Shown: one piece after another, positions 972 through 1,284 of the stretch
Layout: every line of letters begins with the position of its first letter
Position numbering within the stretch: the first letter of the stretch is position 1
Assembly (NCBI GenBank): GCA_963754655.1
Contig: CAVWGN010000001.1
Location: 1,280,001-1,344,000 of the forward strand
Length of the DNA: 64,000 nucleotides
Reading direction: 5' to 3'
Source of the DNA: an uncultured Chlamydiae bacterium
GTDB taxonomy: Bacteria; Chlamydiota; Chlamydiia; Chlamydiales; Parachlamydiaceae
Made by a program: the position numbers and the translations under genes
Notes under the pieces: model-generated
The model's input: only the letters and a program-made list of their open reading frames with translations
Told to the model about the DNA's origin: nothing
Databases searched by the model: none

Positions 972-1284
972 GCATAGTTCAAAAAGAGTGAATGTTGGGT
1001 AACATGTTTATGCCGTCCTTTCAGGACTCGATGTCTTTTAATAGAACCCAGGCCTCCGCTTCGCTGCGACCTGGGCTGTAACATGACGGCCCTTCAGGCC
1101 TTAACAAAAAGATGATTTAGGGCTATAGAAGAGGGCCTTAAACCTCTCTTGTTAAGGCCTGAAGGGCCGTCATGTTACAGCCCAGGTCGCAGCGAAGCGG
1201 AGGCCTGGGTTCTATTAAAAGACATCGAGTCCTGAAAGGACGGCATAAACATGTTACCCAACATTCACTCTTTTTGAACTATGC
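972..1284. repeat. Giant perfect palindrome, family A copy 1 (136-bp arms, 41-bp spacer); REP/MITE-like
   Basis: 972-1107 is the exact reverse complement of 1149-1284. The same core occurs in 27006-28774 and 43386-43785. Confidence 0.95.

Follow-up and report, generated by a model that had tools for sequence, protein, structure and literature searches.

Gene-less palindromic repeats of an environmental chlamydia and their probable relation to IS200-like Y1 genes

Compensatory changes across the hairpins of REPINs, which are linked to RAYT genes, were reported in 2011 (Bertels and Rainey, available text of PMC3116915). The TnpA-Y1 proteins of subclass 1.2 bear the signature Y---Q--HH, have a low copy number and are not insertion sequence (IS)-like, according to the available sections of Quentin et al. 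2018 (PMC6006769). TIRYT genes are flanked by long terminal inverted repeats (TIRs), not by repetitive extragenic palindromes (REPs), and some TIRs form moderately abundant families of dimers; the accessible part of the same source, Di Nocera, De Gregorio and Rocco 2013, lists no TIRtron example from Chlamydiae (PMC3733652). Polymerase template switching homogenises the arms of inverted repeats, lengthens them and inverts spacers, and the templating of one arm by the other was first proposed by Ripley in 1982, both as stated in the available text of PMC8604942; PMC8794818, PMC13100816 and PMC7202029 are, in the parts available, further papers on template switching at inverted repeats. Here we describe family A, a group of long palindromes found in a stretch of 64,000 nucleotides (the window, positions 1280001-1344000 of contig C1) from the genome of an environmental chlamydia, together with the Y1 gene whose flanks carry the same arms. 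The genome (G000) has 3,158,578 bases in 2 contigs, 38.8% G+C, and is 96.7% complete by markers. Genome coordinates refer to contig C1, and the other genomes compared carry codes from G005 to G027.

Family A resembles the REPIN/RAYT arrangement in that a single-copy Y1/HUH gene is flanked by an inverted hairpin repeat, which elsewhere in the genome forms inverted doublets that can fold into one long hairpin. The comparison with REPINs drawn in the initial annotation of the window was apt. Nunvar et al. (2010, PMC2817692) reportedly dealt with REPINs and RAYT genes (REPtrons). Compensatory hairpin changes, several gene-repeat pairs per genome and the occurrence of some repeats in tandem clusters are further common traits (PMC3116915, as far as available). 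The two systems differ in that here the protein scores under the RAYT cut-off, an arm of about 100 nt with three hairpins stands in place of one REP of 20-40 nt, the order within the arm is opposite in the doublet and at the gene, and the doublets lie in shells with terminal repeats and flanking duplications. With TnpA-Y1 subclass 1.2 the system shares the IS200-like core, Y---Q--HH, the low copy number and the absence of IS-like behaviour of the gene (PMC6006769, sections available). It differs from that subclass by its occurrence in Chlamydiae, its conserved three-hairpin inverted flanks and its large cognate repeat families, and the subclass would thereby extend to Chlamydiae with such families. 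The TIR/TIRYT systems, likened here from their described features, also combine a Y1 gene with inverted flanks and, in some genomes, families of dimers.

Two other comparisons concern the dispersed copies themselves. Like miniature inverted-repeat transposable elements (MITEs), they have terminal inverted repeats, short target duplications, no coding capacity and many copies (PMC7202029, available text), whereas their partner transposases are only candidates. Homogenisation, arm extension and spacer inversion are known outcomes of template switching (PMC8604942, in the text available). Unlike MITEs and quasipalindromes, however, the whole body of the element is palindromic, with arms of 100-300 nt against the 5-30-nt repeats documented, in the available sources, for template switching. 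Taken as a whole, the best explanation, to which we give a probability of about 0.65, is that family A consists of gene-less, foldback-type mobile repeats whose hairpin modules stem from the Y1 enzyme, whose copies were spread mostly by shell transposases, whose arms are alike through symmetric ancestry and recurrent arm-to-arm homogenisation, and which persist for want of SbcCD.

Palindrome anatomy and the flanks of the Y1 genes

The palindromic copies proposed by the initial annotation at 972-1284, 27006-28774 and 43386-43785 of the window (copies 1, 2 and 3) were all confirmed (Table 1). Copy 2 is split by an insertion. Its outer arms (27005-27073 and 28707-28775) are 69 nt long and 100% complementary, its inner arms (27071-27178 and 28601-28708) are 108 nt long and 98% complementary, and 1.4-1.6 kb separate the two sides. 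The gap is an IS256-like element of 1324 bp that occurs in 8 copies in the genome, and its transposase open reading frame (ORF; 27274-28476, minus strand, 400 aa) matches PF00872 with E = 2.1e-143. This element was considered as a parent of copy 2 and ruled out, as it has its own ends and is bordered by a 9-nt duplication, TTATAGAAG, inside the loop; it is a later insertion into that loop. Folded as single-stranded DNA, the sequence of copy 1 reaches -188.8 kcal/mol, compared to -36.1 +/- 3.7 kcal/mol after shuffling (z = -41.7, with 0 of 100 shuffles as low). Each family A arm is a module of about 100 nt made of three small hairpins: h1 (stem GTCC/GGAC, loop TTTCA), h2 (stem CCCAGG.../...CCTGGG) and h3 (stem GGCC/GGCC, loop CTTCA). 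The stems of h1 and h3 are variable and their loops are of the YTTCA type. The loop joining the arms is a conserved asymmetric 42-mer, exact in 22 of the 74 full-length copies, which sets the orientation of the element; that of copy 3 is inverted relative to copy 1.

The initial annotation had suggested looking in the genome for a RAYT or other Y1 HUH gene, and one was found. An IS200-like Y1 gene, present once, lies at C1:395750-396241, with family A arms abutting both its sides in inverted orientation; its stop codon is directly followed by the arm start TTTATGCC. Nine matches were obtained in the genome with PF01797, namely one classical IS200/IS605 TnpA adjoining a TnpB-like ORF, six full-length proteins of another type (150-163 aa) and two fragments. 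The Y1 paralogues, 38-49% identical to the family A gene, adjoin hairpin families of their own, and a palindrome of family B, the family of window 43798-44342, is found next to the Y1 gene at C1:2429353-2429802. Scores with the NCBIfam IS200 model range from 64.3 to 66.5 bits (cut-off 55). The nearest solved relative of the Y1 proteins is ISHp608 TnpA (E = 4e-4), with which the HUH motif and the tyrosine helix are aligned. The motif Y---Q--HH is present in five of the six full-length non-IS200 paralogues and Y---Q--YH in the remaining one. Judged from sequence, the proteins fit TnpA-Y1 subclass 1.2 by their HUH motif and this signature.

Y1 homologues (E <= 1e-20) were found in 13 of the 31 genomes searched, G000 counted. 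Twelve Y1 loci were examined, from G000, G005, G007, G010, G015, G016, G024 and G027; inverted three-hairpin flanks were present on both sides at 8 of them and on one side at 3, and none was detected by the pattern used at the last. In an alignment of 20 arms, 89.4% of the cells pair and 9 of the 18 pairs have changed on both sides. Covariation within h1-h3 amounts to 45 both-side cells, compared to 13.5 +/- 2.8 after shuffling (0 of 500 shuffles as high), and the score of slid controls falls to 0.016-0.061; as the 20 arms are not independent (two arms per locus, related genomes), this support is somewhat overstated. The gene flanks match the dispersed arms of their own genome at 87% in G000 and 88% in G016, compared to 72-83% across genomes, with a tie at 79% in G015. 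A REP of 20-40 nt is tagged at one end by GTAG or CGTC. In family A, with its three-hairpin unit of about 100 nt, CGTC stands before h1 as part of GCCGTCC, and the hairpins of another Y1-associated family (D) begin with GTAG. The Y1 enzyme would be the evolutionary source of the hairpin modules and probably still recognises them.

At the Y1 gene the modules are arranged h3-h2-h1, gene, h1-h2-h3, and in the dispersed element h1-h2-h3, loop, h3-h2-h1. The outermost hairpin is thus h3 at the gene and h1 in the dispersed element, and given this opposite order the latter is not a simple internal deletion of the gene unit. Internal-deletion derivatives of the gene unit do exist: A2, of about 408 bp, has seven complete copies (including C1:960412-960819), keeps the last bases of the gene and its stop codon, ends in CCCACAT... 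and is bordered by 6-nt direct repeats in five of the seven (by eye). The dispersed element was also compared to a circular permutation of A2, with respect to gene remnants and outer repeats, and this origin was not supported: only the arms are common to both. In the permutation test the left end scored 18 against the A2 remnant, a value reached by 44 of 1000 shuffles, and the remaining three comparisons did not surpass shuffled sequences. A junction between tandem units is one possibility for the 'inside-out' doublet, since tandem Y1 units are found at C1:2542085-2548293. This region contains two intact, near-identical Y1 genes of family D and a truncated one, about 2.1 kb apart; each is flanked by GTAG-tagged hairpins, and one flank is cut by an IS4-like end.

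The h2 and h3 hairpins of the arm fit the 46-position, two-hairpin model of the Acido-Lenti-1 motif (RF01687). Gene flanks of G010 (45 bits) and G007 (41.6 bits) lie above its gathering score of 37. The window arms and most family A arms score 36.4 bits, 0.6 under it, because their h2 loop is larger. In G000, where arms score 36.4-38.7 bits, 148 of the 150 scored candidates have E <= 0.001 and 11 places exceed the gathering score; no match was found in 14 control genomes. The table of Weinberg et al. 2010, as available, gives the motif as a probable RNA of Acidobacteria and Lentisphaerae (PMC2864571), and in the available part of a 2026 preprint it is still 'of unknown function'. No paper tying the motif to Y1 genes was found in the literature searched for Acido-Lenti-1. 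Here, in contrast, the motif behaves as a DNA repeat, occurring in both orientations, in doublets and in gene flanks. It makes a clear case, in one genome and across eight, of an orphan Rfam 'small RNA' family that is the DNA end-module of a little-understood class of IS200-like enzymes.

Subfamilies, shells and candidate movers

A search of the genome with a 313-nt query gave 172 merged BLAST loci of family A, of which 74 have full-length cores. A scan for palindromes of any family (score >= 40) returned 317, spanning 131,260 nt or about 4% of the genome; the arms reach at least 80 nt in 230 and at least 200 nt in 25. Twelve family A copies have no shell. They end in GGCATGGTTCAA, with either a longer segment ('L') or a shorter one ('R') between the end and the core: seven are L/R, two R/R and two L/L, including copy 1, and one is cut off. 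Both the L/L and the R/R versions of the L/R element are therefore found. The main subfamily (44-45 copies, including copy 3) is the R/R element enclosed in a 50-nt shell ending in CTAGGGTG, and a shell of 69 nt marks the small subfamily of copy 2. In all, at least three kinds of outer shell enclose the doublet, and each kind has terminal inverted repeats and short flanking duplications of its own. The h1-h2-h3 doublets are dispersed in both orientations, nested in each other and interrupted by IS elements. Flanking modules have been re-assorted, as the same module borders both sides of some copies in inverted orientation and unfilled sites carry two different modules.

Related palindromes, 68-85% identical, are present in three further genera of this chlamydia's family, in one more family of its order, and also in two Chlamydiae metagenome-assembled genomes. 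A search with positions 1-2600 of the window found the same flanks together with the element in none of 30 relatives. The literature searched for Chlamydiae with palindromic repeats or with IS200/RAYT contained no paper on these elements in Chlamydiae, and 'Chlamyd' occurs 0 times in PMC5581495.

Family A copies have the features of MITEs: terminal inverted repeats, a target-site duplication, no ORF and many copies. In IS200/IS605-derived palindromic elements (PATEs) both end hairpins lie on one strand, the target is not duplicated and insertion takes place 3' of a fixed short sequence. Family A copies depart from this type by their inverted-repeat ends, their flanking duplications and the lack of a strand bias. 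Eight of the 12 shell-less copies lie between direct repeats of 7-10 nt (by eye; a script confirmed two). Among the 45 main-shell copies, 12 are bordered by exact direct repeats of 7-8 nt, of the CCCWGGG or CCCCGGGG type, and an unfilled version of one common main-shell site was found. An IS of 1848 bp, present in 10 copies, uses the same CCCWGGG-type site, with a 7-nt direct repeat in nine. The CCCWGGG sites coincide with the h2-type hairpin stems found in other repeat families, so that elements nest in one another, as at 43194-44619 of the window. To our knowledge, duplications at the target are not a product of the Y1/HUH single-strand mechanism (IS200/IS605). From the presence of flanking duplications at every layer we infer that staggered-cut transposases are the spreaders. 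The copies would spread mostly by the transposases of their shells, and the transposase of the 1848-bp IS is the candidate driver of the main shell, by similarity of target and ends. A search of G000 for an autonomous element with the family ends found all 159 main-shell termini to be of the gene-less type, and no other transposase sharing the A2 ends was found in this genome.

At four sites of the genome only the outermost bases of two main-shell ends are left, joined at a short repeat in a remnant of 34 nt. These remnants look like footprints of near-complete palindrome deletion, so that deletion of palindromes also occurs. The 83-nt inner unit of family A (h3, loop, h3') is repeated 3-6 times in tandem, often beside an IS insertion, at C1:2138344-2138845, 2393039-2393766, 2368466-2368887 and 681346-681768.

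Likeness of the two arms, its probable causes and its limits

The proposal that the two arms of a copy resemble each other more than they would after evolving independently was borne out. In 44 main-shell copies the mean distance between arms is 0.77% within a copy, compared to 2.49% between copies. The two arms are identical in 19 of the 44, where 2000 random pairings gave a mean of 1.06 and a maximum of 6. Among variants private to a single copy, 17 are present on both arms and 28 on one; six of the 17 lie in one shifted stretch of one copy, which leaves roughly 12 events, and some of the one-arm cases lie at the loop boundary. With about 0.002 private variants per arm position, chance coincidences on both arms are estimated at about 0.03. 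When all families are considered (188 palindromes, arms of at least 80 nt), the best match of an arm is its partner in 191 of 368 cases and another copy in 102, and the two are level in 75. Fifty arms have no other copy more than 95% identical to them; their mean identity is 97.1% to the partner and 91.5% to the best other copy. The palindrome at C1:520174-520435 has 111-nt arms with 0 mismatches and a closest other copy 92.9% identical over 70 nt, and that at C1:696227-696746 has 240-nt arms with no mismatch. Arm stretches that seemed unique to a locus were considered as mirrored unique flanks and proved to be diverged family members.

Each of the copy-specific strings quoted for the window copies in the initial annotation was found on both arms. 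The point variant CTTTTAATAG is private to copy 1 and AACATAACGG is common to five copies. These mirrored differences are real; however, much of what sets the copies apart is subfamily structure, that is end types ('L' on both sides of copy 1, 'R' on both sides of copies 2 and 3) and shells, inherited from symmetric ancestors. The expectation that sister arms cluster by locus fails for the unlike ends, kept in 7 of the 12 shell-less copies though most of these have moved, which group by side. In the main subfamily the nearest arm is strictly the partner for 28 of 88 arms, is tied for 32 and belongs to another copy for 28. Arms are perfect in 34 of the 74 full copies and mismatched in 40 (88 mismatches per 11,575 ungapped arm positions). 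Homologous palindromes elsewhere are 83-98% complementary overall: 96-97% for two in a metagenome-assembled genome, 98% in G016, 88% over 40 nt in G015 and 86% over 58 nt in G017. These limits speak against strict self-symmetrising as a built-in mechanism. Much of the pattern is explained by descent from symmetric masters, but the private mirrored variants are not, and some process copies one arm onto the other.

The mirrored differences would thus have two sources. One may be descent from already symmetric ancestors, giving the different end types and subfamilies; the other may be recurrent, templated homogenisation from arm to arm, either through intramolecular template switching when a hairpin is replicated or through gene conversion of one inverted arm by the other. 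The conversion of L/R into L/L and R/R, the mirrored private variants, the random loop orientation and the inverted flanks fit template switching. Recombination between inverted copies probably adds to homogenisation, as RecA is present. The initial annotation had envisaged an undescribed self-symmetrising system. This claim does not stand, as homogenisation of inverted-repeat arms is known (PMC8604942, available text) and the symmetry is not strict. On the best reading, known template switching or conversion keeps the arms alike and the system is not of a new kind. Particular to this genome are the extent of the palindromes (4% of its length), arms that are both very long and perfect, shells in layers and a measurable homogenisation of the arms.

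Long palindromes are cut by SbcCD, and SbcCD-proficient model bacteria are known not to tolerate palindromes of such sizes. A check for sbcCD, also suggested by the initial annotation, gave 0 matches for SbcD in G000, where control matches were obtained in 13 of 14 known genomes, and for SbcC only two weak ones of 20.9-22.3 bits (cut-off 478.5). The absence of this hairpin nuclease would explain the persistence of the long palindromes. RecA, MutS and XseA are present. The C-terminal domain of exonuclease I was not found in G000, with a model that among the controls matches only E. coli. The genome offers a natural test bed for life with palindromes in bacteria without SbcCD and for the upkeep of likeness between inverted-repeat arms.

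Several points weigh against reading family A as mobile repeats of Y1 origin whose arms are homogenised. With the NCBIfam RAYT model NF047646 (cut-off 80) three of the Y1 proteins score only 22.8, 25.1 and 22.5 bits, and with duplications of 6, 7-8 and 8-9 nt at every layer the Y1 enzyme may play no part in present-day spread. The flanks of the 45 main-shell copies are inverted rather than direct repeats in 13 and exactly neither in 20. The ends of the 1848-bp IS match those of the main shell to a limited extent (six of the first nine nt), and the shell-less end has 17 other matches in G000, all scattered single sites, with no autonomous partner. Concerning the arms, complementarity was a criterion in building the palindrome lists and so inflates the identity within copies, and where a diverged copy has perfect arms its parent may simply have been lost. 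Copies separated by an IS or a gap have 27 mismatches in 1828 positions, compared to 102 in 10,074 for intact copies (odds ratio 1.47, p = 0.085); separated copies are not significantly less symmetric, and an ongoing, hairpin-dependent homogenisation is therefore not shown. Loop orientation has no bias with respect to the replication strand (21:17 versus 19:16, p = 1.0), in a test that is weak because template switching or arm recombination can invert the loop. Finally, the public runs hold only 0.05-0.06 of the sampled words (four soil or unlabelled runs), and reads thus leave room for over-homogenisation by polishing. That the perfect symmetry was exaggerated or created by assembly or polishing, arm reads being interchangeable, is nevertheless highly improbable. 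Mismatches between arms remain in 40 of the 74 copies, several copies contain IS elements flanked by target duplications of their own, and homologous palindromes are present in independent assemblies of other genomes. Moreover, the assembly has only 2 contigs, the family occupies 172 loci, and elements of 250-600 bp can be spanned by single long reads.

Besides continuing conversion between arms, the initial annotation had proposed that one arm is templated by the other at mobilisation. Each copy would then be rebuilt from one arm and the loop through a fold-back or snap-back intermediate and start out as a perfect palindrome. Copy 1, with its 'L' end and three unusual variants on both arms and a palindrome that stops almost at the element ends, is what this would produce. 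Variants seen on one arm recur elsewhere on two (for example at alignment columns 5, 13, 45, 61, 70, 73, 76/77 and 112), and the L/L copy at C1:1879785 is flanked by an 8-nt direct repeat, as if inserted already symmetric. We nevertheless consider such an origin unlikely, and nothing shows it: the seven shell-less copies that keep unlike ends have, for the most part, flanking duplications and so moved unsymmetrised, the diverged copies whose arms are perfect lack a near-identical source arm in the rest of the genome, no intermediate was seen, and the palindromes of other genomes are imperfect. Exchange between copies could produce symmetry in a different way, recombination of inverted copies re-assorting arms and flanks with no copying within the element. 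The re-assorted flanking modules, the unfilled sites with two different modules, the presence of RecA and one-arm tracts with variant states of other copies (copy 412586, columns 61, 64 and 73) are consistent with such exchange. As the only source of symmetry it is very unlikely, because it cannot place a copy-private variant on both arms, as found for 17 variants, and because the reciprocal products that it predicts are unequal: module M2 is on both sides in five copies and M5 in none (by eye). We regard as equally improbable that selection keeps the stem paired, the element working as a long RNA or DNA hairpin in which compensatory mutations are favoured singly. In its favour, h1-h3 clearly covary across genomes, and Weinberg et al. 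2010 (PMC2864571, available part) counted the related motif among probable RNAs. However, the covariation is in the local hairpins, not in the long stem, and the copies occur in either orientation, nested and hit by IS elements. Such selection would also tolerate G-T pairs and scattered mismatches, and would not convert a 10-nt indel and the end types to L/L or R/R.

Hairpin doublets might be palindrome seeds that generate new mobile elements, hairpin-templated copying extending the palindrome outward into its neighbours. This copying would possibly begin at nicks made by the Y1 enzyme, and a lone transposon end beside a doublet, mirrored into terminal repeats, would become a new MITE open to spreading by another transposase. 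Although it is an unlikely scheme in our estimation, it would account for three different shells around the same core, for a shell-core junction that is an inverted and not a direct repeat, for the inverted flanks of 13 of the 45 main-shell copies and for the one-sided shell remnant at copy 1.

Window features and insertion sequences at hairpins

The features of the window are listed in Table 1. At least three palindromic families are nested together at 43194-44619, and a terminator-like hairpin lies upstream of them at about 43160-43200.

Table 1. Coordinates of the family A copies and adjoining repeats in the window (position 1 is the first base of the window).
Feature	Position	Strand	Evidence or remark
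Main-subfamily outer shell remnant, one-sided (end type CTAGGGTG...)	925..971		homology to shell-type outer arm; only left of copy 1, no partner right of 1284
Copy 1 left arm: 'L' end, then h1 (1015-1027), h2 (1047-1075), h3 (1088-1100)	972..1107		136 nt, 100% complementary
Copy 1 asymmetric loop, 41 nt	1108..1148	+	arm pairing; consensus loop 42 nt
Copy 1 right arm, mirroring 972-1107 including 'L' end and three variants absent from other shell-less copies	1149..1284		
Copy 2 left arm (shell type 2, 'R' end, three-hairpin module) and left loop part	27005..27227		
IS256-family insertion sequence in copy 2 loop	27228..28551	-	ORF, PF00872; duplication at 27219-27227 and 28552-28560
Copy 2 right loop part and right arm	28552..28775		
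Copy 3 left arm, main shell subfamily, 'R' ends on both sides	43386..43564		
Copy 3 loop, 42 nt	43565..43606	-	
Copy 3 right arm	43607..43785		179 nt, 100% complementary
Family B palindrome, perfect arms of 224 nt, 97-nt spacer, abutting copy 3	43798..44342		
Third family, smaller hairpin units, left of copy 3	43194..43362		with 44366-44619 brackets copy 3 and the family B palindrome
Third family, partner units	44366..44619		pair with the units at 43194-43362

A palindrome of a different family is found at 12780-13100, with 74-nt arms at 95% and a symmetry that extends by eye from about 12780 to 13100. Next to copy 2, an ORF of 661 aa (28853-30838, minus strand) consists mostly of repeats of about 36 residues (…SVNGQMMTQQALFLRAIELDPSL…) and represents one among several expanded repeat-protein families found among the multi-copy ORFs.

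Hairpins are favoured landing sites of several IS families in this genome and thereby shape its rearrangement landscape. An IS481-like element with a 384-aa ORF has five copies (C1:679529-681346, 1042822-1044639, 2138845-2140664, 2368887-2370704 and 2539759-2541576), every one of them inserted at AACATG in a family A arm, just within h2, which points to sequence- or structure-specific targeting of the repeat. Another IS, with a 375-aa ORF and ends AGGGACAATTGCAG, has 11 copies (C1:2494235-2495692 and 10 more) and lies within the loop of an h1-type hairpin in at least five of them (GTCC TTTC, then the IS, then TTCAGGAC). The IS256-like element of copy 2 is also present in the hairpin loop of at least one family B copy.

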